DNA of 64,000 nucleotides, taken from Raillietiella orientalis. Its lineage: Eukaryota. Both the position numbers and the translations under genes were made by a program. This document shows, piece by piece, positions 7,201 to 54,871 of this stretch. The stretch spans positions 2,852,001 through 2,916,000 of the forward strand of contig JAYWIR010000021.1 in assembly GCA_036172245.1 (NCBI GenBank), read 5' to 3'. The notes under the pieces are model-generated. The model was given only the letters and a program-made list of their open reading frames with translations, searched no databases and was not told the origin of the DNA. Each line of letters begins with the position of its first letter. Position 1 is the stretch's first letter.

Positions 7201-10200
7201 GGACAAATGGAGCTGATCAAAAATCGACGCTGCCTGATATAAAAAAATGAACGGAACTTCACGGGGAGGAATTGAAGATTCTCGTAGTGCTAACGTCCCA
7301 CTGCTGCAGAAGACACGTTGCATCACGTTTCATTAACCTCATCGTAACATAAGGTGCACTTTGCAGCTACAGAGCGCTGAAGGATGCTGAGCTGCTCTCG
7401 AAAACTAGATGCGGAGTGACAAGCAGATCGCCGATTGATGCGTGGAAATGGCGATCCTTGTCTAATGGATTTCCCCTTCTCTTATTCCCGAGTCGTAACG
7501 TACTGCCGCACCGCAGATTCCCAACAGCCCTCCATTTTTGACCGAACGCAAGCACCCGACGACACACTGAGGTTCCTGCGCTGGGCTGGTTGCAGACTGC
7601 TTTTTAACTTTCTTGAAGAGATGCTCGAATACCAAGATGGAGGCCACAGAAGCATGCAAAGAGGCTTCAGGATTGAAAATTGTCGGGATGTTTGGGTCGG
7701 GATGTTTTGAATGAGAGTGTCATGAGCAAACGTCTCAGGTACGGAAGGATGGAAATGAGAGCAGTGCAGCCTGGAACTAGTTCACTCTGGCGTGTCGTCT
7801 ACTTCCGTCCATGAGAATATGGAAAAATCCAGCTTGCAGTTGAATGCTGCTAGGCATGCAAGATGAGGGTGTTTGAATAAGAGTTTCTCGGCTTCACGGC
7901 CACAAGACTGCATGGAAACGCTGATTCTTCTGAGCTACGCCAAGCAAAATCAACACGACCGGACCACAATCCCAGCATTCGAATCACGACTAGACCTATT
8001 TAGGGGAGTCATAGCATGTCCCTGGGATACATCCCATGAATATCAGATCCATTCTGATAAAGATTCGATTTCCTGAAGCGAAGACTCACCTACCTCACTT
8101 TCATTTTGGGGTCGCACTGAAGCTGCATCAGTTTCTTCAGAAAAGTGGCTTTCCAAGGACACCGGGAGGAACGTCGCATAACTAAGATCATCGAAAGCAT
8201 CATTGTATCTGGAAATGCGAAAATTCCGAGTACGAAGCTGTCGTCGCTCTGCTGAGTTTATCTGCGGACTCGTCTTCAGCCATCGCCAACGGATTCCTCC
8301 CTGAAAAGCGTCAGTGCTGGAGGTAGAGATAGGGTAATCTGTGTAACGGTTATTCATTCCAAGCTCAATTTTTTTTTATTATTAATAATGATTTCCTTTT
8401 TTTTTTTTGTTTTTTTTTTTCGAAGAGCAGTAACACGTGATGTGCCTGTCCCTGCGTACGCAGGTGTATGCACGTACGGGTGTACGTACGATATTCATGT
8501 AGAATACGTCGGGATTGCGTTCTATAACAAAACGTCCATATTTGATGGTGTCGCGAAACATTATTATTATTATTTTGGCACATCTCTGCTACTTCCAATT
8601 ATGTATGCGGCTCATGTTAATTTTCGTATGTAGGGCGAATCGTTTTCAACACTCTTCACCGCTTGCGAATGAGAAAACAAAGTACGCAATGATTCGTACA
8701 CAATCACAGGCGTGTTGAATGTGCCCCTGCAGCTTTTTTTTTTTTCTTCTTCTTTGTCTTTTTTTTTTTTTCTTTCTTTCTTTTCCTTTGTTTTTTTCGA
8801 AACAACGCTCGCTGCACGAACTCTCTGAAATGAGAAATCTCGCCGGCATTCAGCAGCCGACTCCAGTTTCTCCGTGAATCGTTTAGCCTTCGCGGCTGAG
8901 ATCGCAAATGTCGCACAAGAGGTGGTCATTTTTGCAACCGCGGCCTGTGGCAAGCGGGAAACGATCTCGGACGTGCTTGCGTGAGCTCCATTGCGAGATG
9001 CTTTTGGTGGGCTGCTTGTGCGAGGAAGCTGAAGGTCCACGCGCTGCTGCCGCAGCATCTCATGGGGGGGGGGATGCAGAGGACCTGAAAGTGAAGCAAC
9101 GGAACGTCGCTTCCGTCACTTCCAGCGTCAGAATGAAGCGTTTTCAAAATGCACAGTCCGTGAAAACGTATTTTCCTCTCTAAACGATCTCTTTGATTCA
9201 CAAGTTGTTACTCTATTCCTTCGAAGGGCCGTTCCCTCTTTAATATGCAATTTATCTGCAAGATGGAAACTCCCTGCAAATAATTGCTCTCTCATTGTTT
9301 CCTGGTGCAGACTCTTCAGCAGAGTCCGTCGTGATAAGAGCTAACAAAGAACGAAAGCACGAGTTAATAATAAAATGGAAGGGGAGCCATCCATTTGCTT
9401 GTCTGAGGAGCTTTCTCATTCGATGGAGTATTGCTTCCGAAAAGTTCCTATGCATTACGTCATTGTCAGCCATCATGTCAGCATCAGCAGCAAGTTACGG
9501 AGCCGTTTCATCTCCCTCCTCGCCATCCCTCTCTCCTCCATACGCATATCAGCTTCCCCGATGCCTGGAAATCTCAGCCATTCGAAAAATTCGAAACCCA
9601 ATGCTAGTGAGTTCTGGAAAAATCCGGCTGTCCCAACGGATGATGTCGAGTGAGACGACTGCATGCATCTCGCCTCCTTCGCGGGAATAAATACCAGAAA
9701 TCGAATTCATCCATCTCCTCACAAGTGATTTCACGCGGCGCTACAGTGGAACGACGGGTCAAGCTTTTCTCCGCATGACAGGTTTCATTAAGAGAAGTGG
9801 GGAGAAGAGATCTTCTCATCCAAGGACGGAATTTTGAGTCGCATCGCTCTGAATTCTTCAAAATGGCGATCGCCGGATGTGTCGTTCATGAAATCACTCG
9901 AACAAGAGCAAGAGGGCACTCGGACGAATCCCTGATTAGCGAACATCAGGAACGGTGAAAACAAAAGAAATTCGAATCTGCTGCGTGCCTTCCCTGTAAA
10001 TCAGCGTCAACAGCGTGACGTCTTCTCCCTCCTGAAGATCTCGATGGCACGTGATTCGAGAATTCGAGTCCTCTCCTATGCATCCTCATTGAAATTTTCG
10101 TCATCGCACACATCCCAGGCAGCTCGTTTCCTGGATGCAAGTTCTGGAACCTCAGCTTCGAACCTCAGGCTGGAAATTACGCTCTCCTTTTTCCTCACAG

Positions 10201-13200
10201 CTAAACGGTGGGACGTGTTCTTTCTTTCCCGAAAGGAAGCGGAACTGCTCCGGGACTTGATGACCCAAGGAAACCCGCGACCCAGTTTTCTGCTCTTTGG
10301 AATCTTTCCTAGAAGAAGCGGCCTGCCGATATTCCACAGGAATTCCACTGCAACTGACGAGAAGTTCCTTCTTCTCGGCAAAGAGACGGTTCTTCGGGAA
10401 GTGGGGTCCCGCGTCTCGCTGAAGCACCCGAGAAAAAAGGGATCCCAGCTTCCCTTTCAGGATGCACAACAAATCTCGTGCATCCTGCTCCTTTGAACTC
10501 CAACTCCTTCGGATGGCCAGTGCCATTGTTTTCATTCGAGTCCTTCCCATATTATCGTCTCATTCCGATCGTGACCATTCATTACATTCTTCGACTCACA
10601 AGGTTGCGTGCTGTTCTGGCAGGAGACTCCGTTGGGAATGCCCCCGAATTCTCTGAGACCATCCCTCGAGACGATGCTCCACACGCCCGCGTCTCGCTAT
10701 TTTTCCCGGATTAGGTGAGTGAGTCGTTTTCTTCAGAGCAGCGTTCGGTCCTTCGCCGCTATCAGAAAATTCGTTTTGATGCGGAGATTTTGTGCACGAG
10801 ATAAATCAGACATCGCTCGCGAAGCGCCGATCCCGAAATGTCCTGAACCACGCGTGCATGACATCTCGGCACAAAACCGGAAGCTTACTTGGCATCCCAA
10901 GAAGAATTGTCGTGCTTGCTTCAAACTGAAAAAGTATATGCCGCGGTCCAAATCTGGGCTGATCGATTATTCCAGCAAAGAGCTATGCGTTACCCCAGAA
11001 AGCTTAATAGCCGCCGCCGTGGGAGAAAACCAACACCCCTTCCTATGCATATTAAGCAGACTTCTTAGCGTCTACCAGCAACACAAGAAGAAATGCAAAA
11101 ACTGCTTTCCGTAGGAGCTGAAGAACAGCGAATGTGCCATATGGAGAGATGAAGATCAAGGGCTCACGGCAACTGCATGGAATATTCTGGCGATATCGGG
11201 AGAAAAAAACGTCTTCTATTGAAGAAAGTGGAGTTTGCAAGGAGTTTCTTCATTTCCCTTCCTGTTCGTGAACTTGAGCTCAGGATGGTTCCTTCTCTGC
11301 TACCTTTCCACTTCAGTGTTCCCACTAGAGGGTACCCTTGACCTTTGATGTACTGATGCTCTTCATCAAATAGGTTTCCGCATCTCATGAGTGAAGAACT
11401 CGTCTTTACAGAAGTGATCTAACCATGGAACTTCCTGTAGATTCTTACTAGATGTCTTGTAAATCGGGGAAAAACTACGTGTGAATAAAAGAGGATGGAT
11501 GGATGACTTTCTGAGGCACCCGTGAGTTTGTCTTATCCAGAAAATCGAAGTTAGGGGAAAGCACGGGATACTTTGTGATCTGAGAGGCTTCAATGTATGG
11601 TACATCGAACCATGACGATGGTTTCAAAGCGTGGATTCCTCTGATCTTGAGCGTAATTTTGCTTCCTTCGATCCGATACAGAGGGGCTCCTGTAGACCAG
11701 ATCACATAAGAGGAAAGCCCTTTAAATAGACAGGAGGATGAAGTTTGTGAAGACGAGTCTTTTCTGGTGCCTTCAAGGTTAATCGCGAGGAAATTCTCTG
11801 AACGTTTTAGAAAACTTAGCTACTGACCGACGAACTGCTGCAGGGAAAGACGAAAAGAAAAACGATCAGCAAAAAAGGAGGGAAACAGTCAGTGTCACTA
11901 AGCATGGGAGTGTGTAAGGAAGAGAGAGAGAATGGTTATTTAAGTGTGTACAAGTCGATCAGCTCAGCATCCAGAGCAAGAAAATCGGACACTCGAATCA
12001 CCATGGCAATGGTTACCACCTATTTCGAATTACTGTATCTCGGAAATCTTCATTCTAACTTACTTGCTTACGAACGTAACCAGTGAAGATGCTATTCATA
12101 GTTCAATGCCCCTCCTCTTAGCATGCTCTCTACATTCTTCTTTGGTGTGTATTCTTACAGTACTTTTTGACTCGGTACTCATTCTTACAGTATTCTGATC
12201 TCGTACTGGAGAGTGGCACACGGATAGATTTCCTATCGATTGTTCTCTTCTCGCTTAGAGTTTACCTTGAGAATGACCTGGAAGAATAGAATTTCAAGGA
12301 GATGGAATTGTTGGCACGCAAATGAGCAACACTGGGATCTGCTCCTCGTTCTCTGTGAGATTGCAGTCCTCTGAATCACAGTTGATTGCTTGAAGAAGAG
12401 CAAAGCGTCTTCTATGGCTGGTCACGTTTCTTCGAATTCGCAGAAATGGCACTGTCAGAGCGTTCTTTCCAAATATTTTTGAGAGCTGGGACGGTGGCGA
12501 GACACATTTCCTCTTTACAGCCAGCTCAGACTTCGCGGAAGTAGCCAAGAAAGAAAACAGTCAGTCAGCGTGCATTGAGAAAAGTTTTCCAGCTTCCAAT
12601 CCTGAGAGTTCACGTGTTGTTCTCTTCATGATGGTCCGTGAACAGATGCCAGCTGCTTCACCCAGTTTGACGCCATTCCAGCTCTTGGCGCTCTTATCAG
12701 AAGATGCTTTTTTCGTTACTGCGTTAAAGTGGAAATTCGGTCTCCTACTCGTTCTTCCTGGACTGCGAAGTCACTTATCACCCACCGAGAATGCTTTCTG
12801 GCTCATCACATATTTATCAATTTCCTCTTCCTCGTTATGTACTTCCACCTGTTACAATGTTTTGTCAGATGCGCAATCCTTCCTTCTCCTTTGTCCCTTG
12901 GCATCTTTGTTTCCAGTCCTTCTTCCCTTTTGAGTCTGAGGATTGCTGATGACTTTTAGGACTCCATGCAAACTGTGCTCCTGCTCACTTGCATTCGGTC
13001 ACTTCCTATCACTGTTTATGTTGTCCATGAAACTCTGTTTGGTGCTAAAGGACATGTCTTGAGAACTGAACGCCATATGAGCTACCACCAACTTTACTTG
13101 ACTGTTGTAGTGAGGCAACGCATCAGATAATGCCGTAAGGTTTATCTCCAAATAATTGCCAATGATTCAAAAGATTCATGGACCCGCCATTCAAGGCTCC

Positions 13201-16200
13201 ACTCGAAAGGAGTCTCGTGACTTCTTAAACAGCTCCAACACTGATGAGATCTTTGTGATGAGTTACAGGACACTCTGGATTCCCTGGGACCCTTGAAACT
13301 TATGGGCTCTCGAGCACAAACAGCGTTTTAAAATCCTCTTCTCCATCTCCACTTCCAACCGCGACAGCCGATGCTGCTATAGGGCGAAGATGGAAATTGA
13401 TTCATCTCGTGCAGCAACCTTGATGGAAAGATGCGTGCACACTTTCCTGTTAGCTAAAAATGGGAGCCTTTCTCGCATGGAATTCATCTGTACTTTTTTT
13501 CTAATAAGCACTTGGTTTCATCTGTGCATACTTTTGGATTTCGACTGCTTTCCCTGCTCCCCCCCTTCAGTGGGATGACTTTGTTTCAGCTCCGTGCGAA
13601 TCGCTCCGAAATCGGAGTTACTCCGATGCAGATTTGGACAAGGATATCTTCTGATGCCCATGAATTGGGAATCTAGCTGAGCAGATGAGGAGGAAGAGCG
13701 AGATCGCTTTTTGTTGCGTCTGTTCGTATTTGAGGGGAATCCATCACAACCAGTGTAGGCCATATGTGATGTTTCGTTTCATTTGAGATGTATCAAAACA
13801 AACTGAAAGGTACCTGACGTGCATCTCGTCCCAGAGATCTCGGATTCAGCAGCATCTTTCCGTTTGAATTTCCGCTGCTACTTCCACCGATTCTCTGATT
13901 TCCCGATCGAAATCCCATCTGTAGAGATGATGCCCGAGAAGTGGAAGGTGGCAGCAGCGTTTTTGGACCCAAACAGCTTTTGGAATACGTTCCCAATCAG
14001 ACTGAGACTTCGGACTGAAGCTGAAGCTTTCTTGCCTTCTGAACCAGGTGGATAAGACTCCTTGCAAATCAGCAAGCATCTTCGAAAGAGTTTTCTCTTC
14101 TCTCTGGGTGAAATTTCAAAGCAAGTACAACCATGACGACAGCTGAGTTCCAAGAATAAAGCAGGAGAAATTATCCGCTCGATGTAAAATTGGAGTGAGA
14201 AATCCAAACTGTTGAGTGCTTCCCGCGTCCCTATAGGATTTTTTCATTCCAGAAAATCAATACCAGTACATAGAGGATCAGAAGCTACCTGTTTTCGGAC
14301 TTGGCCATGTGAAAACTGCTGCAGGTCACAACTGCAAACATTTCATAAGCATATGCCATAAGTCTTTCAGTTGTTAGCAGCAAATTGCTAAAAGTCAGTT
14401 GCGACTGTCAACATTCCGGACAGGGAGGCAATCCAGAATCCTTTTCCAACGCAGGGACTCCTACTCATTTTTCTCTTCCTGAGCACTCCAAAATATCTGT
14501 GTGTTCACTTTGCTATATTTCTGCATGAATCCTTTGCATGTTAATGAAATAATCTTGTTAAGAAAACCCCTTTTACGAACTAAGTATTTAATACCTGAAG
14601 TATACGGAGCGTCATTTGAATACTCTAGTCAAGGAAATGTGCGCCCATTATCACTTCTTGGGGAACTCTCCATTTTGCATTTACCACGGAAAACGCTCGA
14701 GGCGATTCGAAATTGCTCCAGACGCAGCGAGGAACTCCTGGCGGTCATTCTTCACGTATCGGAGGGTGAAACTCAAATATTCGGTCAACAGTTTCGAGAA
14801 AACTTCTGGTCATGTGAAGCAGCAAGGATATCGCCTGCTTGAGTAAAATCACCCAAGGAACACAGCTATGTTAGATACAGTTGTCTGGACTCCAATAGTT
14901 ATCCAATTCTTTGCTCGTTTTTTTTTTTTTTTTTTTTAAATAATTTTTAAAACTTTTGAAGGATTGTTCTATTCTTCCGAGTTCAACCAATTGGTAAAAT
15001 ATGGAAAATAAATTTCGCACAGATGAGAAAGGACTGAAATTTGTTAGTAGGTATTTCGTTAGACCTTAAGGAAATAAAGCATCTTTTGTTACGTTGATGC
15101 ACGACTATGTTAGAAGATTTCATTTCATTACATGAAACAGAATTTACTCACATAAAAAACATTCCTTCCTATTATAGGAACTCGATTATTAATGCTTAGA
15201 GGTTATCTTTTGGAATTGCACTCCGACATCCTTCTGAAGTACAACTTTATCTTGTATGATGCTCAATCTTGTCATGGGAAGCAATGGTCATAGTTTCCTG
15301 GACCATTTTTTCCTTTATCATGGCTTGAGACATCCAGCTCTTTGCCGATTCTATCAGAAGCTGGAGGAAGTAATGAACGGGACAAGAGAGACGAATAAAC
15401 AGTTGATAAGAGAAAATAAAGAGGATGTTAATAAGGCACACATGGCAAAAAAGGATTTAGATTTTGGTTGTGAAATCTAATAGATCAGCTGCCTGCTCTC
15501 AGAACTGTCTAAGAGGCACAAGAAGTCTAGGTCCACTTGAAGAGGAAAATTGCACTGTTATGGAGGGATATCGCAAAGAGAGTTTTCTTTGTTTGCAAAA
15601 GGCTAAGGTCTTTTGCAAGGGAATTTTAATCGAAATAGCTCCCCCGACACGTCATCCACTGCGTGTAGACAAGCACATTCTATATGGATTATTCGTGATA
15701 TCTCACTGTATGGGAGAGATTCACTCCTGTAGCTTCTGCAGCTGGGACTATTAAAATGAGGTACATTTGCAGTGGTTGAAAAAAAAAGTCTGAATGAACT
15801 TATTTCTCTTCTCCCCTTTCCCGATTTTATATGTTTTGGATCTACTATTCAACCAGGATCGGAACTGGAATAACTGCCAGAATTAACAGGCTGAGGACTG
15901 AACTTGGAGTTTCCTTTTGATGGTTGCTTTACTGAGAAAAGAATGCTACAGAGTTTACCTAACCTTGATTACATATTTAGAAATAAGAGAGCGTTCAATA
16001 AATTCGAGGACATTCCAAACAGAGATGAGAGAATATCCTCTTTCACGAATCTCAGCAGAGACTTTGTCTGACGAGCTATATAAGGACGTCATGCTCTCAG
16101 AAAATATACTTTGAAGAGATGACATGTCATGCTGTACAGGAACAGTTCTTGGAACCAGACAGGAAATGCCAACAGCCTTCGAAGAAACAGAATAGCAGCG

Positions 16201-17301
16201 TATCGAGGACCGTGTATCTTGCAAGACACCAATACCACACCGATATCCAATATCATTTGTTCCATTTTGGAGGAAATGGACAATCCGAGCAAACACACCG
16301 AGGGGAAGAGAGTGAGAAATAAATCCTCTTTGCTGATGTCTACCTTTTATTTCCAGATCGGAAATCGAGTGGAGTGGAAATCGAATTAGCGTAACTTCCC
16401 TAAGGGGTGCTGTAGCTAGACCAGATAAAGAACATAGCTTTCACATATGGTAGGAAAAAAAAAAATGTACTTGTTCTTGTTTGCAGTTGTCGGAAGCATG
16501 GATGTGGCAGGCTTGACTGCAGGTTCGTTTGAGGACCTGACCTTCTCCTTACTCATATAAGACAGGAATTAAAGAAAAATGCTGGAAGCATTTGAAAGCA
16601 TTCCTTGATGAATCGCGTTGATCGAATCTACGAAGCATCTGATGAGATCGTAGCTGACAGCTTTTTTTTTTTCTTTTTTTGCAGCAGCAGCAGCAGGACA
16701 AGGTGAATCCACGTAAAACTGGAATGCCGACACAGGGAGTTGATGTGCCATAATCCTGGGCATGCAGTCGTCAAGAGCTCCGAGGTTCGGAAGAAGATAT
16801 CGGATCAAAATGAACCTCATGCATTTTGCATAGTCGAAAGTAGCTTGTTCATCTGAAGATAACCGATTAAAAGAACCTGTCTTCTGTCTTGTCCCAAATT
16901 CAGCATGCTGCATGCTGCCCTTCTTCCATCAGAAGCGAAAATGAAGACGAGTAGAAACTGAAAACTCGAAACTCCGGGGTCATGGTCCGGTGTCCCCACG
17001 AATCATACGATCCTGTTCAAACTTTCCGTCTGAGCCTTCCTCCGATTCTGCAAAGTCCAAGTGATCAGAGCAACAGTTTCCTTTCTCTTGCTTTGCGGAA
17101 TTCCGTTAACGAGGCTGCTGCCAGCAGGAATGCTGACAGAACAGTAGCACGGCCACAGAAGCTCGGTGCTGGGTTCACAGATTCCCACTGCATTCTTCCT
17201 CCCCTAAATTTCACCCAAGCATCGAGTTTCCCTTTGTGCATGTGAGAATGAATTTATCTTGTGGGAGCATTCCGGAAGGGGGAGAGAAGCTTGGTGGACA
17301 T

Positions 17302-18260
17302 TTAAAGATCGCACGAAACTGAAGAAAGAAGTGAGTAGTAATCGATGAGGTTGCGAGGTAGAAAAGCGCGTTTCTTCTTAGCTCTTCGTTTTGTAAAGAG
17401 CCGTTTCCCGAAGATACGATCCACGAAGCTGCAGACCTGGCTCGCACGGCTGCAGTTCAAGGGCGTTCTCTTCAGCTGCGGAATGGAAGGTAAACTACAG
17501 TTATCGGGTTTGCCCGTGTCGGAGTTCGTGTGGTTGCGGTGGTCTCCGCGCGTGGCACCATGCGTCGTGGGTTCGAATACTCCGAAGGAATCGACGCAGT
17601 GCGCCGTGGCTTCCGATTTCACCCCACAAGATGACGCTGGTCGGCCTACATTCATCCGGGTGCGACATTGGTAGCGGTTCAAACCGGATGCCCCCGGTGA
17701 GGGCCGGGACAAATGGGAGTCGACTTCCATGTTCTTCCAGGAATCACGGAGTGGGAGCTTCCCTCCGGTTGTGAAGGAGCGGACCCCCGGAATAGGGGGG
17801 TCCTCCGCGTCGTACTGATGGAATAGGTGTGTCGCCACCCATCCCTTTAGAGAGTGCAGAGAAGCGAGCCTATTCCTTCGGGGAAGCAGCACCCTTCTGA
17901 ATTTCGGAAGCATCCCTTCTGGGTTCTCTTCAGAGGAGTAAGAAGAGGAGCGGATCCCTTGCAGGAGTCCTCCCCCCGGAGAATAAATCCCAGGATCGGA
18001 TCCTTTCCGGATTCCCATCAGAGAGGAAACAATGGAGCGGATCCCCTCGGGGATCCTCCGGAGAGAATAAGGAAGGAGATTCCCTTCTGGATTCCCCTTC
18101 GGAGACAACCAGGGTGGAGGTGATCCCCATTTCCGGGGACCCCTCCCCAGGCGTGAGAGGAACGGACTCCGAGTCCTTCCTGGATTCATAGGGCGGACCC
18201 CTCTCGGAGTACCCCTATCTTGAAGAATTACCCACCCTGGCGTTGAACCGTTCCGAAGAA
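17302..18260 (-). CDS. Putative terminal exon of an unidentified gene; alternatively a structured 5' UTR followed by a 142-aa ORF (17730-17302)
   Basis: Longest ORF in the window (331 aa in the track). It is preceded by a strong acceptor (TTTATTTTCTGTCTTCGCAG| at 18261) and a GTAAGT donor at 18513. The upstream segment (...FSKFPDDLDLLNQELRCFP) joins in frame in its only open frame. An internal ATG at 17730 has good Kozak context (AACATGG). No homology recognised. Confidence 0.4.
17747..18260 (-). repeat. Degenerate tandem array of about 11 stem-loop units, spaced roughly 30-50 nt
   Basis: A recurring 3' arm GG(G/A)(A/G)TCCG(C/T)TCC pairs with GG(A/G)GGA(C/T)(C/T)C 5' arms, e.g. at 18189-18217, 18159-18180, 18116-18146, 18072-18100, 18034-18059, 17944-17977, 17776-17806 and 17747-17767. 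Linkers are pyrimidine-rich. Confidence 0.8.
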
Positions 18261-21200
18261 CTGCGAAGACAGAAAATAAAGGATTTCCATCATCCATTTG
18301 TATTTTTCCGGAAGAAATGCATCTACTGTTCTCCCTCCCTCACCCAAGTTAACCTGTCTTCTTCCGCTACTAATTCTTCTGGAATCAGTAAAATCACTCC
18401 CTTATTAATCTAAAAGAATTTCAAGCTAAAATTTGAAAAGAAGCCACATGTCAGTAAAACGACCGGCATCCAGAACTTGTGTATTTTACTTAAAACTCGT
18501 GTATTTTACTTACGTGGGAAGCACCTGAGTTCCTGATTTAGCAAATCAAGATCATCAGGAAATTTCGAAAACCTACAGAATGTTTTTCTTTCATGTTCTA
18601 GGAGCCGGAATTCCTGAATCGAGGCAGGACCGAGTCAAAGTAGTCTTTCCCTTATTGTACACTAAGCGTGCTCCTTATAGATTTCATGTGTAGTCTATCG
18701 TCCTTGCTAAAGAATGCCAGACAAATACATTCTTTCTTTTCTGTCTGATGGCAAATTTTTTTAGAACGGAGAAAAAGTCTATCAAATGGAGTGACCGAAT
18801 GATGTCCAACGATCGAAACTCGTTCTTTCGATCATTATAATTGTTTCAGGCAAAGAAAAACAAAGAGAGAATCCTTCTTACATCCTTGTTGTATCGGATG
18901 AGAAAAATTACCTCTATGATGCTGAATGTATGACTTATAGAGTTGGAAATCTCCATCTTTCTAAAAACTTTGAATCTTACTTGGAGAAAATCATGCGAAA
19001 GCAGAGTCTTTAAAACTTTAAAATATGCTTACTACTTACAAATGTGTACCGGAAATGTGATCCTTCTTTTCACTTCGAAGAACCAAGTGCTTCTTCACGA
19101 TCGTTTCTCAAATGGAAGAATCGACTATAATCGCGTTTCGTCTGGAAGAAGGACAAGGGGACTCTCTGCCTGAATCAATCATACTTGGGCACACCTTCAT
19201 CAACTACAAGATGAGCATTACCTTTAGGATTCTTATAGCAATTCATACATGCGCAACTTGGTAGCATCATTTTCTCCATAAGTTTGTTTCTCTTCAATGA
19301 TGGACACTTTTTCAAGCTTACAGACTGCTGTGCTGGTTTGAGTTATAAAAGGCAACATCTTCAGTAAGGAAAGCATTTTTTTTCTCTTCTCTAATGACAC
19401 AAGTCCAGATGGCTATCTGTTAGAGATTTGAGTCGACAAATTACATGGCCGTTCTATGCAGACGAATGATGCTGGCAGTCAAGTGAAATGTTCTGGAAAA
19501 CACAAAGACTGTCAGCACATAATCACTTGGTGCTTCTTGAAAAACTCGACTTGCATCCTGAATCAAAATTAGCTGCAACGAGCGTTTGCACCATCTTTAA
19601 ATAAGTGCTGGATGACAAACATCTATGCATCCTCAAGTCCCCCAGGGATGCAGAGGGAAAATTTTAAAGAAAAATCTTTTGACTTCAGCAATGAATAAAC
19701 TCGCATTCCTGGGTATTTCAGATGTGCATTCAAAACTCTCAAACACAGACTAGATGAATTTTTTATTCTCAAGTCAACCTATGACTCGTCGACTGGTATT
19801 ACAGAGATTTGCGAGAGATTCCAAAGCCAACATCGAAATGCTTCAGAATGGGAAATTTACTACAGAGATCCCAAGTTTTAATTCACCATGTAAGTTCTCG
19901 CATTCTATCAACCTTTTCCTCTACAGTCATTACCATGTTCTTTCTTCTCTTATGCATCCTGCTGAGTTTTCTTCTTGCATCGCAATGGGTTTCACATGAG
20001 TAAGCCAAGCATGCCGTGCAAAACGAAGGTCCATCAGAAAGAAAAATCGTCTTTTGCATTTTGTATTCAAGAGATCCTACTAATAGTACTGGTTGCCTTA
20101 CTGCAACTGCAGAATTACTTGTTAAAACTAAACATTTACAAGTCAAAGAGTTCGTTCTCTTGAATCTTTCAGTTGTCCATGGTTCGAGAAATTGAGTATT
20201 TCAGGGTGACTTTTGTGAAGACTAATTGCTGTCCCAATTCATTGACAGTCTCATGCCATAGACATGCAGTGTCTACACATCCGCCTCCACTTCTTGATAT
20301 TCACCCTATCAATCCAGATATCCATTCCTGAGAATCTCCCATTTTAGGTTTGCAGGAAGGGAAAAGATTCCGCGAATTATCTTTGTGAATGTTAAGAAAA
20401 AAATCTTGAAAGCCGATCGGAAGAAATTCCTGCCTGTCCTTGTGAAACCGAAGAAAATATCCATAACAAATGTGCAAGATGACTGGTTGAGTTCGCTCAA
20501 GTCTTTTTTTACAGCAGTCTGGGGCTTCCAGAAGTAGTCGTTGCAGTAAGGCAAGCTTATCCTAAGGTCAGAATTAACAGAGTTTTACAAAAGTGACTTT
20601 CATGACCAATTAACGCAAATCTAAGGAATTTATCTATTCTGACATGGAGCCGTGTTCGATGATTTATTAATCGCTTAACACACGGCTCTAAGCTTCTATT
20701 AGAAGAGCATGGCATCGGAAAAGAGTGATGATTACCCCATTTAGCGCAACACCCTGATCGATACGCAAGGGACCTTGGAATATTATGATCTCCAGGAGCT
20801 TAAGAGACTATCATACTTGGTGTGAAGGCCTTACAAAACACTAAGAGACCTAATATGAACGAAAAGAACATGAACCCATTTCATGACACTATTCCTTCTG
20901 AGCATCCTTTCGTTACCCATCCAGTTCCGCTTGAAAGCTGACTTTGCTGTTGATCCCTAGGGAGGTGAATGAGAAATCTGATTCCTTCCTCCAGAGAAAT
21001 GAAACGAATTCTCGATCTGATGAGAATACCTGACACCGGGACCACTCATCAGCCAGGAAAACGGACATATCCTAATGGTTTGTCCCAATGGCAAGGCTTC
21101 CAGAATGCCTAATAAAAATAAGAATAAAAGTAAGCATAAGAATAAAAGGCAGTTTGCTATTCTTAAATGACCTAAACCTAAATCTCAAGCTTCCTTCCTT

Positions 21201-40200: not shown

Positions 40201-43200
40201 CCCTCTCTTGACTAGAAATTTCCGGAGTAAGCACGGGGAAAATAGTAAGAGCAGGAATCAAGATGCTGCAAGGATATGAATTTCCGACAGATGGGATCGT
40301 GCGGAGAAGATTCCTGAGGGGCTGGTTCTTAACGTAGATTGTTTTAGCAAGCAAAGGAGTTCAGATAGAGGCAGGAAGCCGGTACCGAAATACAGGACGT
40401 TTGCACTCCCACTAGAAGATGGAACAGCAGTGACGTCATCCAACAACTTGTGAAGAGGATAAAGCAATCGATGGAACGGAGAAGGAACTATCTGTTGAAA
40501 ACTGCAGCATAACAAATTTTCTGGTTGGTATCAAGTTTTGACCTTCATCGAGGAGAATATTCTACAGGACCAAACATCGCAGCGAGTGCTCTGCGGTATC
40601 GAGAACATGGCGATCTCTTGGATCCTCTTGGCATACTGGGTAAGACTTTTTGGCATATGACACCATGGAAAGGCTACCACCGTACTAGAAGAGGTCGTGA
40701 TGCTTGCGGATTATTGTTTCTTTCGGTTTCACAGAGACGACCTCTGGATGCTGTTAAAAATTCTCCTTCGACTGTCCTCAGCCTTTCATTCAAAACAGAA
40801 GCAGTGTATGCAAAGGTATGGTGGAGTCGAATTCAACTTGTCCCATGGAAGCTGCGAACCCCTGTGAAATTCTTCCAGAACCCGGGAGAAGTGGAAAGGA
40901 GTCCGTGTTCCTCTCTCAAGTCGTTTCAGAGATCTCCTTTTCTCTGGAAGATTCGTTTCAACTTCCTTGGATTCCCTTTGTCAGACTCAACTTCCATTGT
41001 ATCCTTGTTCTTCACTTGAGAAATCTCCACCTTACTTTGTAAGCTAAAATCTGAAAGAAGCATAAAGTAAAGAGATCGATTCACGTTCCTTCCTCCCGCC
41101 CCCCCTACTTTCGTTGTACTCAGTGGATGATCCAGGTTCCGGAGGAAATGGACCCACCTCCTCCTAGTAAGACTTCCCGTTGGAACTGTGGACGCGAGAG
41201 AAGACAGGCGTAGGCGAGCCTTAAGCCATCGTGGCATTCTGACTGCGGCAGAGTTTCCTCTTGCATCCTAAGAGCCGTTCTGTAGCAATGCAAAGGTGAT
41301 AGGTAAGCTATGCCGTCCTCATTTTGCGTCGGAAACCGAAGAATCTCTACCAGCCATCACCAGCATTTCGAGTGAAGTTAACCGCAGGAATCACGCCCAC
41401 GAAACATTTCGGGGATTGGAATCTTCCGCACCTAAGAAAATCATGGTGTTTTCAATCGCACTCTGGCGCTCATTTCTTTCCAATCGATAGTTTCACACTT
41501 ACTTCCTGCATCATGGGAAGAACATTCCATCCGGCCATCTTCTGGTATCATCTTCACAGAGCTTACCTTAGTAGCTTGGTACTTAGCCGGACAATCGATA
41601 TAAGACATCAGCTAACCAATGACATTTTTAATCGAAATCTGCTCTTGGGAAGTTCTTTCATAGACGTTCAAGGACTTGTAAGTGTTCCTGAAAGCCCTTC
41701 TGTAAATTACTGAGACCTAAGTGGTTTTGCACGTTGGCTTCCCTGAGTTTCTAATTTGATATCCGTAATCATTATCAGCATGGTTCTTTGCTGCTGCTCG
41801 TCTGGATGCAAAATACAACTATCTGTTAGTAAGGTCCTTGTTTTCTCCTTAATAATTATTCCACTTCCCAATCGGTATAGGTCTGAGAAGTGAAAGGTGG
41901 TCTCTGAAAACCTGCAATGCAGATGAAGTGTTGCTGATGTGGCAGTGTGGATCAGGTCTCAAATATTCCCTTAAAAAAGATTCCAGTCAATTTCCATGCA
42001 GCACCTGCATTCTCTCTCGGCTGTACTCTTCTTGAGATATAATCCTGGCTTTAGCCGGGAACTAAGTCCTTGCTCCGTCCTGGAGAAAAGTCTTGCCGCT
42101 TGCAGGTTCCTGCAGGGCATCTGGTTTGGTTGCTGAAGCAACCAAACCAGACTCAGCTTCTCCCTGGAGAAACCATTCGGCTACTCGAAATTATTTTGTA
42201 GAGACCCTGGAAAAAAAAAAAAAAAAAAAATCAGAAGTGGATTACGCGATCTTTTCGAGAAAGAGAATAAAATCGTTTTGGGCTTCTGAGTTTCAGGAAG
42301 AGAAGGAATCGCGTTGCCATAGCTAGGCTCCCCTCCAGACAGCGAAAATTTTGAAGCCATCCTAGAATGTCGTAATTCATCCCGAGAGTAGTTACTGTTT
42401 CCCGTGCTGAATGCGATGCTTTGTTTCTTTCTTCTGAAAACGGTCCCCTCAATCGTTTTCATTACTTAAATTGCTTCTTTGGCTAAGTGGAGAGCATAGC
42501 GTCTCCATACAGCCGCGAGTTACTAAGTCACATATGAAGATGGTGCGAGTTTCTCGAGTTCTTCCTTCACGCTTTCTTTTCGACATCCTCATGATGGCAT
42601 TTCTGTAAGCACAGCGGAACATCCCCAACTGTTCTTCTTGGCCCCTTATTGCAGCTGCCTCTTTGTTTCTAAGAATTATGTCGTTCTAAGGGGGAAAGAA
42701 ACAACGAAGTGCTGACATTAAGCTACGATTTCCTGCGTTTAAAAATATTTGGAATCTTTCGAAGATCTGATCTCTGGTAAAAGCAGTTCCCAAGGGAACG
42801 AGAGGATAATAGGTTGGCAAAAATAGTGTTTTCCCTTTTTTGACATCAAACTTTCATTGGAGGTACTCCCTTTGAGGAGTTATGCAAATGTCCAAGGATT
42901 TTTCTCGCACCGCGGGATGTTTTCTCCTGCAACTCCTGAGGACTCAGATAAGAAATATGACGCTGTCACTGTGTTTTCACGTGTTAAATGCAAGCTCTTC
43001 AGAAAAAGAAGATCCGATTCCTTTGAGTACCCGAGAAACTTCGCCTTAGCACTCGAGTACTCGCTTCCCACTTCGACTTACACGAACGCGCGAAGTCTGC
43101 ACAGCGAAGATGGCTGCGCAAACTCCCTCCGAGAGCAGCCTTCGTTGACGCCGAAGATAGGTCCGCACTTCAGGAGACAAGTGGGTGCCTCAGCAGCGGC

Positions 43201-46200
43201 AAGGTAACGACAGGAGGGGAATGAAACGCAACATTTATGGCTCGATGTACCGTTCAGCATGGCGGAGAGCCGAGAGCGTTGCTTAAGTGGGCTGCCGCTC
43301 AGATGCAAAAGAGCATCTTCCAGATATCTTGATGCAGAGCAGCAGCAACGTGCTCAGTTTCTCGGCTGTAGCGTTGCTCTCCTTCTGCTTGGAGAGTCCT
43401 TTGGAAAGCTGGCCGCAGCTTACAAAACCTTCTTGGTTCCCTGCACTCTGTTCTCGACTAGGAGGATCGATCGTTTCTTTTTTTTTTTTTCTTGTCATTT
43501 AATCATCTTCACAGGGAAATCCGCAAAAGAAAACAAACAAACAAATCATTCGAATCAAAACAGTTGATTTCGGCTCGCTTCTGAAAACTGCCCTCTGTCA
43601 TCTGCTAATCTCGCCGGGATGCTAGGTTAGCTTCTCGGATCACGTGCAATCGAAGAAGTTTTTTCGCACACGGCGCCTTTCGCATGCTCATACCCTGAGG
43701 CAGAAAAGGACCTACAGTGCAAACACAGTGACACTTATTAAAGTTCAGATGCAAAGCGGTGATAAGATTCAAATCGGTGGGGAGTATTATCTTTCAATGA
43801 CCTGACGAAAATCCACATTTTGTCTGCTGAAAAAGAATCTCTTTCGAGACTGTGAGGTTGCTTTGTGACGAACTCTCGGTACTCACGAATTTGCTATTCG
43901 CTTTTTCTTATCTTCAGTTGAACCTTCATGTTTTTTTTTTGTTTTTTTTTTTTTAATTTGTCTCTCTGGAAATATGCTAAGGAAGCATCCACGTGCATCA
44001 TCCACATTTTGCGGCTTCTTCATGGCATCCTCAATCAATTTGTTGGAGCTTTCGAATTTCCGGTACCTAAGAGCATGGCCGTCTTCAAGTCACTCCACTT
44101 CTTGATACAAAGTAATCCTCCTCTCTTCCAGAATAATCCCTCCTTTCGTTAATGGCAAACACAGAAACACATTCCAAAGTCATTACGCATTGGAAAATGA
44201 CAGCGACGTGACGCTGCTGCTTGTTTTAAGAAGGCCTTTTCTATGAGAATCATTTTTTCAGTTTACACTGGTGCACCCTAGAGCAAAGTAAGGAGAATGT
44301 GTCTCTTTTATTCTATCGGATCCTTCTGCAGAATGGTGACCAAGTGACCAAAAAGTGCTGTGACTGTTGCAACTGCATTCTTTACGAAGAGGGCTGCATG
44401 CAGACTCTTTTATCTGCATGTTATAGAATGTGCAATAATCTTCTAGGATCTTCAGCTGATGATCTTGGTTTCCTTCTCTTAGGAGGAGTAATCAAGCGGG
44501 AAATCGCTTTTCCTTCTTACCTTCCGATGTCTGTTGTAAAGCCTTCCTCTAACATGTCCCACTGATTCGGAAGGAGTAGCGCTCCGGGGCAAGCTCCTTC
44601 TTTTCTTCCAGATGGTTTTGTTGGAATCACTATTTCCTGTCCTTCGGAGGGAAATTGCAGCCTCTTTTGATGATCTTATTGCAGCCACTTCTGAGATCCT
44701 ATACTTAGAAAATGCTCTGAACCAATGTGGCTTCTAAGGATTGCTCCGCGGTCTATCCGGAGCTCAATTTTTTTTCTTCGTGGTTTCAGCAAATAAGCCT
44801 TGAAAAAGAAATGAATGACTCGTGTAAACAAAAGTCAATGTGGTCTCTCCGTCTTTTCAACTCAAATCCTCCTGAAGGTATGGAACAACGCTCGTTTTTC
44901 TGGAATTGACTTTGGCCTCCTTTTTTTTTTTTTTTTTTTTTTTTTTCTCTTCTAAATTTGTCAAAAAGGAAAAGTTCTTCCTCACTATCATATATAGCAG
45001 TGGACCTTGTTATTGAAGCCAACTATCTCCAAATCAGCTTCACGGGACGCAGACCTTCTCACACCCTGCACTAGGAACACTTTCCTGCGGGGGATGCTGG
45101 GATGACCGAGATGTCATACGGTGCTCTCCAACGCTACTCTTATTCGAATGTTGAGGAGCTCAAAGATGACGAAAATCACGGTTCGTTTTCCTAAAACTAT
45201 CCTCTGTCCCTGGGGCGTAGTCCCACGAACATGTCCAGAGAAAGAGCGCACAATGCTCATTACTGTCTATTGATGAAGAAGATCAAAAGGGTGCCTCACA
45301 TTCATACTCCTGCCCCTCATCTAGGAAAAGTTTTCATCTGCTACTCAAAAGATGCAGTAATCTCTGATAGATCTCCGAACGCGCTCCTTTGGCACTCTCA
45401 TTCCTCATTCTCTTGAAAATTATGAACCCCACGGGAGGGAGTTTATAATTTGCCCCTGATGACCTGACGTCTTATGCTTGCCTATTTAAGTTCAGACCCA
45501 TTTTTAAAAGAGCTTTAATTAGTCCACAAGTTCTCTGAACAGGACGACGATCTCCAAAAACTGAATCCAATATTGTCTTTTAATAAAGACATTCAAATCG
45601 CCGAAAGACAATCACTTCAGTGACGACAACTGCCAACCAGCACTCGAAGCTTTTCTTCTTTGAAATTAGATTCATTCCTTGTTTTTTTTACTGGGTTTCT
45701 AAGCTTTCTCTTGCGACTCGTCTTTGCATACTTTCGTGTCCTTAGCTTGTTCTGTTTGCTTCTGATGAAGGGAGAGAAGAGTCCATGGCTGCAGTTCGGC
45801 TACCGAGGAACACGCAGGCATCCTGAGGAGATAATAGGTCTAGCAATTCGATGAAGACAAAAGGAAAGAAGCAACAGTGGATTCCAATTGAAGGAAGAAA
45901 GAATTGGTCTACGGTGCTGGTGAAAATAGACGGATAAAGCAATCGGCTGGTACTTTGCATCAGAAGCTTCAGATATCAGTGATTCTTGCAACCAGATCAT
46001 GGTTCATAAACTTCTAAACTGATTATCCGTTTACTTTTCAGGAGAAAAAGGAAGCAAGTGGCAGAAGAATCTTTTGAACATAGAGTTGATGATGATCTCT
46101 TCTAGTTGAATATGCAAAAACGCCAGGATATCCCGAGCGATGAGGATAGAAATTTTCACAGGGGATTTTTGCTGGAGCGCAAGATCTTAGTGGACCTCAT

Positions 46201-50853: not shown

Positions 50854-50925
50854 TTCCCATGCCGGGAATTGAACCCGGGCCTCCTGGGTGAGAGCCAGGT
50901 ATCCTAACCACTAGACCACATGGGA
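50854..50925 (-). tRNA. tRNA-Glu (anticodon CTC)
   Basis: Minus strand reads TCCCATGTGGTCTAGTGGTTAGGATACCTGGCTCTCACCCAGGAGGCCCGGGTTCAATTCCCGGCATGGGAA (72 nt). It has a 7-bp acceptor stem, A-box TGGTCTAGTGG, anticodon arm CCTGG-CT-CTC-AC-CCAGG and T-arm CCGGG-TTCAATT-CCCGG. Confidence 0.97.
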
Positions 50926-54839: not shown

Positions 54840-54871
54840 ACACACACACACACACACATACACACACACAC
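54840..54871. repeat. (CA)n microsatellite with one interruption
   Basis: acacacacacacacacacatacacacacacac. Confidence 0.9.

Follow-up and report, generated by a model that had tools for sequence, protein, structure and literature searches.

The minus strand of a 64,000-nucleotide (nt) stretch of the Raillietiella orientalis genome (assembly GCA_036172245.1, contig JAYWIR010000021.1, positions 2,852,001 to 2,916,000 of the forward strand), hereinafter the window, carries a degenerate tandem array of 12 hairpin units, U1 to U12, that covers about 470 bases of non-coding sequence (17747–18218 in window coordinates). The array can be recognized from the sequence itself, its periodicity, a scan for hairpins against shuffled controls, the consensus of the units aligned with MAFFT, and the spacers. 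Each unit is a GC-rich imperfect palindrome followed by a spacer of 6–17 nt that is mostly pyrimidine-rich, and successive units start about 33–50 nt apart, with a mode of approximately 41 nt. On the minus strand, the consensus of the unit is GGAGG-GGATCCCC-GAA-GGGGATCC-GC-TCC; the consensus derived from the MAFFT alignment reads GGnGGAATCCCC-nAA-GGGATCCGCTCC and continues into a spacer of about 12 nt dominated by C and T. Autocorrelation of 4-mers yields peaks at lags 41–42, 46, 82, 87 and 123–126, with z-scores of up to 9.7. Tandem Repeats Finder, run at a score of 30, does not call the array, so that the copies must be less than approximately 70% alike. With its head-to-tail units that share a common consensus and period, the array is a degenerate tandem repeat, or minisatellite.

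The original prediction for this region, made from the letters of the sequence, described an array of about 11 related hairpins that favor the minus strand. The hairpins that it quoted are all present on that strand in the places indicated, and the number is confirmed by the scan described below, which finds 11 hairpins, with 12 units counted in the array. The proposal that all units share one architecture holds for 9 of the 12, in which a lower stem of 3–8 base pairs (bp), GGAG-like on one side and CTCC-like on the other, is followed by a bulge of 1–2 nt on the 3' side, an upper stem centered at GGATCC and a loop of 3–7 nt. It does not extend to U8 and U9, which are decayed, or to U10, which is of a different construction.

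The individual units, all on the minus strand, vary considerably around this scheme. U1 (18188–18218) consists of a lower stem, a 1-nt 3' bulge, an upper stem with one G-U pair and one mismatch, and a GAGA loop (−14.7 kcal/mol). In U2 (18158–18181; −10.6 kcal/mol), the lower stem is GGAA/TTCC, the bulge is a single G, and the upper stem is GGACT/AGTCC, so that, compared with GGATC/GATCC, two adjacent pairs are altered on both sides. U3 (18116–18146; −22.6 kcal/mol) has a GGAGG/CCTCC lower stem, an A bulge, an 8-bp upper stem including two G-U pairs, and a GAAA loop, whereas U4 (18072–18100; −14.2 kcal/mol) has an 8-bp lower stem with one G-U pair, an internal A.A mismatch and an upper stem of only 3 bp. 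The unit nearest to the consensus is U5 (18034–18059; −14.7 kcal/mol), which includes a GGA/TCC lower stem, a GC bulge, a GGATCCC/GGGATCC upper stem and a CGAG loop. U6 (17994–18019; −10.2 kcal/mol) combines a GAT/ATC lower stem and a GGA-A-TCC/GGATCC upper stem with a GGAAA loop, and U7 (17945–17977; −16.7 kcal/mol) a 6-bp lower stem with two G-U pairs and a GGA-C-TCCT/GGGATCC upper stem with one more G-U pair with a GCAA loop. In the decayed U8 (17907–17931), GAAG and CTTC surround CCC-AGAA-GGG, and U9 (17863–17895) is an irregular, weak hairpin (−9.5 kcal/mol). U10 (17820–17845) is a 10-bp stem without a bulge but with two G-U pairs, which folds to −15.0 kcal/mol on the minus strand compared to −6.4 kcal/mol on the plus strand; because it is built differently, its homology with the other units is doubtful. 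U11 (17776–17806; −18.6 kcal/mol) returns to the common build, with a GGA/TCC lower stem, a GC bulge and the upper stem GGACCCCC/GGGGGTCC, where a T-A pair of U5 is replaced by C-G through changes on both sides. Finally, U12 (17747–17767; −9.1 kcal/mol) has a CGGAG/CTCCG lower stem, a bulge and a short upper stem.

The GNRA loops to which the original prediction drew attention occur in 3 of the 12 units (GAGA, GAAA and GCAA); however, switching off the special-loop bonuses leaves the computed energy unchanged, so that these loops make no energy contribution. The purine-rich loops, the GNRA ones included, look like variants of one ancestral GAA-type loop and, accordingly, are not independent events. 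A covariance model of the unit (hereinafter R1) recovers U8, which was left out of its construction, at 14.0 bits. The 8 best matches of R1 are its own training units, and given that the model was built from minus-strand units, its lower scores on the plus strand are not a test of strand.

Among the 11 spacers, 7 have a pyrimidine content of 64% or more when read on the minus strand, so that structured cores repeated with pyrimidine-rich linkers are a feature of this array. The CTCC at the spacer ends is able to pair with the GGAG of the next unit, and longer-range alternative pairings exist. Furthermore, the GGATCC core is its own reverse complement, and the arms of the units are therefore both direct and inverted repeats.

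Folding strength, arm matching and strand preference

Non-overlapping hairpins of at most 34 nt with a free energy of −9 kcal/mol or lower were sought on both strands of 17747–18260. The scan of the minus strand detects 11 hairpins with energies summing to −167.9 kcal/mol, a value that 60 dinucleotide shuffles never reach (on average, 8.1 hairpins and −107.6 kcal/mol; standard deviation 18.1, best −156.3), nor do any of 40 trinucleotide-preserving (z = −3.4) or 40 tetranucleotide-preserving (z = −4.7) shuffles. Since the latter two controls never match the minus-strand energy, the excess is not a mere by-product of words rich in GGA and TCC. The plus strand, with 8 hairpins and −113.7 kcal/mol, is not an outlier (z of approximately −1.3, −1.1 and −1.3) and is matched by 6 of the 40 trinucleotide-preserving and 1 of the 40 tetranucleotide-preserving shuffles. 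For the whole 514 nt, the minimum free energy is −230.1 kcal/mol on the minus strand (z = −2.20; 1 of 100 shuffles as good) and −209.7 kcal/mol on the plus strand (z = −0.89; 20 of 100). When 250-nt bins of the window are ranked by the 40-nt folding energy corrected for G+C content, the two bins of the array take ranks 1 and 2 of 256 on the minus strand and ranks 4 and 5 on the plus strand. The hairpin pattern of the array is beyond chance, and the folding advantage that the original prediction anticipated, both over dinucleotide-shuffled controls and over the plus strand, is present on the minus strand.

Elsewhere in the window, the bins 10251–10500 and 1251–1500 on the minus strand and 44251–44500 and 42001–42250 on the plus strand also fold more strongly than their G+C content predicts. 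Several short hairpins can be seen by eye on the minus strand at 10150–10560, where the R1 scores do not rise above chance.

Pairing is retained within the units while their sequences differ, as had been noticed originally. By eye, four units have T-A and four others C-G as the fourth pair of the upper stem, and the lower stem takes the forms GGAG/CTCC, GGAA/TTCC, GAAG/CTTC and GAT/ATC. RNAalifold applied to the MAFFT alignment of the 12 units predicts no pairs at all, because the sizes of the lower stem, bulge and loop vary and MAFFT loses the structural register; the alignment fitted to R1 also misregisters some units. Therefore, an alignment-free test was used, in which the 5' arm of one unit, a common loop and the 3' arm of the same or another unit were joined and folded. 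On the minus strand, chimeras made of a unit's own arms average −14.4 kcal/mol, compared to −8.65 kcal/mol for swapped arms, and on the plus strand the respective averages are −12.4 and −8.0 kcal/mol; in each case, none of 20,000 permutations is as good, with the qualification that the arm boundaries come from each unit's own fold, which favors own-arm chimeras somewhat. Arm matching that is equally strong on both strands is a property of DNA palindromes and by itself does not point to RNA.

The claim that many apparent mismatches are G-U pairs on the minus strand only is borne out in direction, with 10 G-U pairs on the minus strand against 3 on the plus strand, but the difference is marginal (binomial p = 0.09). 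In the comparison unit by unit, for which the windows were picked on the minus-strand fold and hence favor that strand, the minus strand is better by 2.9–8.6 kcal/mol in 7 of the 12 units, and wherever it is worse, the deficit stays within 1.3 kcal/mol (Wilcoxon p = 0.042). When G-U pairs are forbidden, the strand sums become equal (−127.8 kcal/mol for the minus and −124.7 kcal/mol for the plus strand), so that the entire strand difference is due to G-U pairs. An alignment of the palindromes that is neutral with respect to strand, with G:T and A:C scored alike, gives 15 versus 12 (p = 0.70), although this count takes in positions next to the loops that mean little. The bias is not accounted for by base composition, given that G+T accounts for 50.6% of the minus strand of the array. 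The minus-strand bias is, in short, real but marginal.

The GC-rich block and its gene context

The array adjoins a non-repetitive, CpG-rich segment of about 450 nt (17300–17746) with a G+C content of 56–61%. The observed/expected CpG ratio is approximately 1.3 at 17300–17700, compared to 0.74 for the window and 0.55–0.70 for the array. Together, the array and this flank form a GC-rich block of about 0.85–1.0 kb amid AT-richer DNA, with 56–64% G+C at approximately 17400–18250 and 32–46% on either side. Another CpG-rich patch of the window, with observed/expected ratios of 1.4–1.66, is located at 8200–8800, beside a long T-rich low-complexity tract (8733–8798). On the minus strand, the array is immediately preceded on its 5' side by a pyrimidine tract that ends with CAG (18261–18280) and resembles a splice acceptor, by eye only. 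Farther out on the same side, in AT-rich DNA, a 20-nt unit (AACTCGTGTATTTTACTTAA) is present as a tandem duplicate with 94% identity (18474–18512).

The block is spanned by a minus-strand frame of 345 codons without a stop (17302–18339), the longest in the window, which takes in both the array and the CpG-rich flank. No dinucleotide shuffle of 17250–18400 among 500 contains a frame of that length (the best reaches 308 codons). However, stop triplets are scarce in all frames of this region (7–12 per frame over 1150 nt), and by a rough estimate the chance of one such open frame at a comparable locus is about 0.005–0.015, that is, it is not rare genome-wide. A Pfam search identifies no family for the 345-codon frame, nor for 150 and 99 other open frames, and a word-indexed search among 5.8 billion clustered proteins finds no relative of the 345-residue translation. 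The lone match among 1.84 billion representatives, P0001, was rejected as an artifact, a translated satellite that hits one 37-residue stretch repeatedly. In this protein of 891 residues, a unit of 55 residues occurs 16 times, evidently the translation of a 165-bp satellite, and the E value of 7e-7 is attained only by summing 13 copies of a single weak 37-residue match; repeats can inflate HMMER scores in this manner. Given that the unit lengths of 33–50 nt are not multiples of three, the frame reads the repeat in shifting frames. The 345-codon frame is unexplained and is probably the outcome of chance and composition.

The nearest recognizable genes are encoded on the minus strand. The exons of RMI1 (25043–23691) contain the N-terminal helical domain, the N-terminal OB-fold and the C-terminal OB-fold; for the C-terminal exon, the word-indexed search for longer proteins finds no relative. 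The exons of PAN3 follow at about 30746–28940, and a PAN3 exon is 73–79% identical to PAN3 of tick, scorpion and spider and, by eye, 60–66% identical to the Drosophila and human proteins; by this measure, the genome looks chelicerate. A PAN3 exon looked up in a protein atlas retrieves nothing but generic kinase clusters, with no informative taxon. The array is located downstream of RMI1 (stop codon at 23.7 kb), in an interval free of Pfam-recognizable exons apart from one weak match: between 11 and 23.7 kb, none of the 99 open frames of 40–74 codons match Pfam, and the same holds for longer frames, save for a weak DUF7882 match at 13849–14115.

The cumulative G+T excess of the minus strand falls from approximately 2 to 18 kb and rises from approximately 18 to 38 kb, with the minimum at the GC-rich block; RMI1 and PAN3, both minus-sense, lie within the rise. 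The turning point could mark convergent transcription or a replication feature. If the skew follows transcription, the end of a minus-sense transcription unit may lie at the array or close to it, and skew linked to transcription could also supply a strand-biased mutation process that favors G-U over A-C on the minus strand.

An Rfam 15 search detects no family at the gathering score for the array, in agreement with the original statement that no known RNA family could be matched; the best matches in 16800–19000 have E values of at least 1 and score far below gathering. The sole match in the window at the gathering score is an intact tRNA-Glu (CTC) gene on the minus strand at 50854–50925. An (AC)16 microsatellite is located at 54840–54871.

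Possible origins of the array

The explanation that we tentatively favor, at somewhat less than an even chance, takes the array for the body, formed by a palindromic minisatellite, of an ancient non-coding insertion rich in G+C. The insertion is probably a mobile element, now dead, that sits in minus orientation. This explanation starts from what is observed at the locus, namely the repeat structure, the hairpin excess, arm matching at the DNA level, the lack of coding and known-RNA signals, and the compositional block. The compactness of the GC-rich block, the tandem periodicity, the matching of arms on both strands and the lack of a coding or Rfam signal all support an insertion. Under this scenario, an insertion of about 0.85–1.0 kb (about 17300/17400–18260), most likely a non-autonomous mobile element, would have landed in a gene-poor interval, and its founding unit of approximately 41 nt, a near-palindrome of 26–31 nt around GGATCC with a CT-rich spacer, would have been amplified in tandem, the copies then diverging. 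The arms might have stayed matched for two reasons. The units may have started out as almost perfect palindromes during the active life of the element, and hairpin-templated DNA processes, such as template switching during replication, may re-copy one arm from the other. For RNA genes, it has been shown that matched stems can arise and persist without selection by such a replication-linked mechanism (PMC8794818). That G-U slightly outnumbers A-C on the minus strand could be a relic of the RNA sense strand of the element or the product of strand-biased mutation, in neither case requiring present selection. That the insertion was mobile, which way it is oriented and how its arms were kept matched are what we infer here. 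No known satellite, transposable element or RNA family was found to match the array.

Several results weigh against an insertion of this type. A search of 16800–19000, 17470–17720 and 18230–18480 on both strands yields no Rfam match at E ≤ 10 to a tRNA, 5S or 7SL-like head, and ARAGORN reports no tRNA near the array at the default or the 90% threshold. With the threshold lowered to 80%, it makes 32 low-grade calls across the window, 4 of which fall within the hairpins or close to them. One candidate head, at 17519–17587 on the plus strand, with an acceptor-like pair TCGGAGT/ACTCCGA and a B-box, was rejected, being unsupported by both Rfam and ARAGORN; its B-box-like GGTTCGAATAC at 17570 on the plus strand is at chance level, with 3 matches compared to 2.76 expected. 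The search for further copies is likewise negative: blastn with a word size of 7 detects no second copy in the window, R1 finds nothing above 13.9 bits (E value of about 0.9) outside the array within the window, and no look-alike stretch is identified, by sequence or place, among the other indexed DNA windows, in an index that finds only DNA of about 90% identity. A metagenome scan with a degenerate pattern of the unit returned 2 loci; the one inspected is high-GC, bacterial-looking sequence with a single chance match, and this lead was dropped. Target-site duplications are usual for retroposons; here, the flanks share three 9-mers where about 1.5 are expected, none of them above chance. No convincing terminal inverted repeats are present at the block, and neither block end has a clear A-rich or simple-repeat tail, although an old copy could have lost its tail and target-site duplication. 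Furthermore, a hairpin excess confined to the minus strand (z from −3.3 to −4.7) and a 345-codon frame on the same strand would also be expected of a transcribed, constrained minus-strand sequence.

The lack of a second copy in the window and of recognizable ends, tail, head and target-site duplication is what would be expected if the array was born locally and never moved, as a functionless palindromic minisatellite that arose by slippage and unequal exchange and is kept hairpin-prone by template switching. Arm matching at the DNA level on both strands is compatible with this origin, for which a mechanism is available in the literature (PMC8794818). It offers no account, however, of the 450-nt segment next to the array, which is CpG-rich and non-repetitive and belongs to the same block and open frame, and we consider this origin rather unlikely. 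Selection on the structure of a minus-strand RNA, as put forward in the original prediction, is an explanation of a different kind. The array would then be a working domain of a long non-coding RNA, a 3' exon or an untranslated region, in which about ten short hairpins tolerant of G-U pairs, with CU-rich linkers, would dock an RNA-binding protein in the manner of the multivalent Xist A-repeat. This would account for the minus-strand hairpin energy that surpasses all 60, 40 and 40 shuffles of the three kinds, as the plus-strand energy does not, for the 10 versus 3 G-U pairs and the Wilcoxon p value of 0.042, for the co-variation of the arms within units and for the pyrimidine content of 64% or more in 7 of the 11 minus-strand spacers. 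It would also fit the acceptor-like tract directly 5' of the array and the minus-strand G+T excess that extends from about 38 to 18 kb and stops at the block, which could mark a minus-sense transcription unit ending there. The folding advantage on the minus strand speaks for the original claim, whereas the remainder of the same evidence does not single out RNA: the plus strand shows co-variation of the same strength, the G-U bias disappears under strand-neutral scoring (15 versus 12) and amounts to about 10 positions (binomial p = 0.09), and the windows of the unit-by-unit comparison, picked on the minus-strand fold, favor that strand. Moreover, the units are paralogs within one array rather than orthologs, their loops and stems are not independent samples, and there is no Rfam match. 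A functional scaffold of this kind accordingly appears unlikely. In a bolder variant, structured RNA modules would form a family particular to this lineage, each a row of about ten bulged GGAUCC hairpins that tolerate G-U pairs and are joined by CU-rich linkers. Retroposition would have spread them, and the module here would be carried by a minus-strand transcript and serve as a multivalent docking scaffold for proteins, similar in logic to the Xist A-repeat, with its arms kept matched by selection on the RNA. This variant seems distinctly improbable.

Two further possibilities were considered. If the array were a double-stranded DNA row of palindromic sites for a dimeric factor, e.g., one of the Rel/NF-kB type (consensus GGGRNNYYCC), in an enhancer or boundary-type element, the palindromic symmetry at the DNA level and the regular spacing would follow, and 6 of the 16 matches to this consensus in the window indeed fall within the 514-nt array. 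The consensus, however, follows from the build of a stem with GG and CC at its ends, the count of 16 is compatible with chance (10.2 expected; 14 of 100 shuffles reach 16), and sites recognized in DNA do not predict the G-U asymmetry, all of which makes such an element very unlikely. The other possibility is a protein-coding exon, in which the 345-codon frame would encode a disordered protein rich in Gly, Pro, Arg and Ser and the hairpins would be incidental. In its favor are the length of the frame, the greatest in the window and unequaled in 500 shuffles (best 308 codons), and its position on the strand with the better hairpins. But the translation belongs to no Pfam family and has no relative among the 5.8 billion clustered proteins, its lone match in the 1.84-billion set is artifactual, the repeat units shift the reading frame, their lengths not being multiples of three, and in a region poor in stops in every frame the chance of one such frame, about 0.005–0.015 by the rough estimate, is not rare on the scale of a genome; we regard a coding function as scarcely credible.

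If the array is only a fossil repeat, its value is modest, but it is a clean case of arms that stay matched while the units diverge. Co-variation within units is usually read as proof of selection on RNA; that it is found here on both strands calls for caution in the identification of RNA genes from covariation, and makes the array a possible natural test case for the maintenance of stems by template switching. If the strand bias is real and the block is transcribed, it would be an RNA scaffold built from repeats in an arthropod lineage where almost none are known.

Comparison with known systems

The cores of the Xist A-repeat are GC-rich and about 24–26 nt long. The human A-repeat comprises eight and a half repeats with conserved cores, U-rich linkers and variation between repeats, which form a multivalent platform for proteins (PMC10870365); the present array is similar in having GC-rich cores, CU-rich linkers and a similar period, with 12 units. 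Unlike the A-repeat, it comes from a different phylum, and no sequence or Rfam relationship between the two was found. The stems of the array differ as well, being longer and bulged, with a GGATCC core.

SVA of hominoids is a composite retrotransposon that bears a variable number of tandem repeats, with a GC-rich minisatellite in the middle made of units of tens of bases. The block under study resembles it in containing a GC-rich minisatellite with units of tens of bases, whereas its mobility is only putative; it contains no Alu-like or SINE-R parts and comes from a different phylum. To our knowledge, SVA units have not been described as bulged palindromes.

Short interspersed elements (SINEs) that are related to tRNA and have a body of unknown origin are comparable to the block in its size class of less than 1 kb, its non-coding character and its high G+C content in AT-richer DNA. 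By the SINEBase definition, the head of a SINE has at least 60% identity to tRNA, 5S rRNA or 7SL RNA over at least 60 nt (PMC3531059); measured against that definition, the block fails on the one defining feature examined, the head, and it differs from SINEs also in that neither a tail nor a target-site duplication is detected. A look at the literature on SINEs with tandem hairpin bodies and on the tick SINE Ruka found no family of such build, but this search was too narrow to claim that none is in print. The closest parallel for the behavior of the arms is that of stems maintained by template switching. The work on this mechanism (PMC8794818) compared RNA genes between species and did not deal with tandem arrays, but the mechanism accounts for matched arms, and for compensatory changes of several bases, with no need for selection on RNA, and it fits the arm matching that is observed here on both strands.

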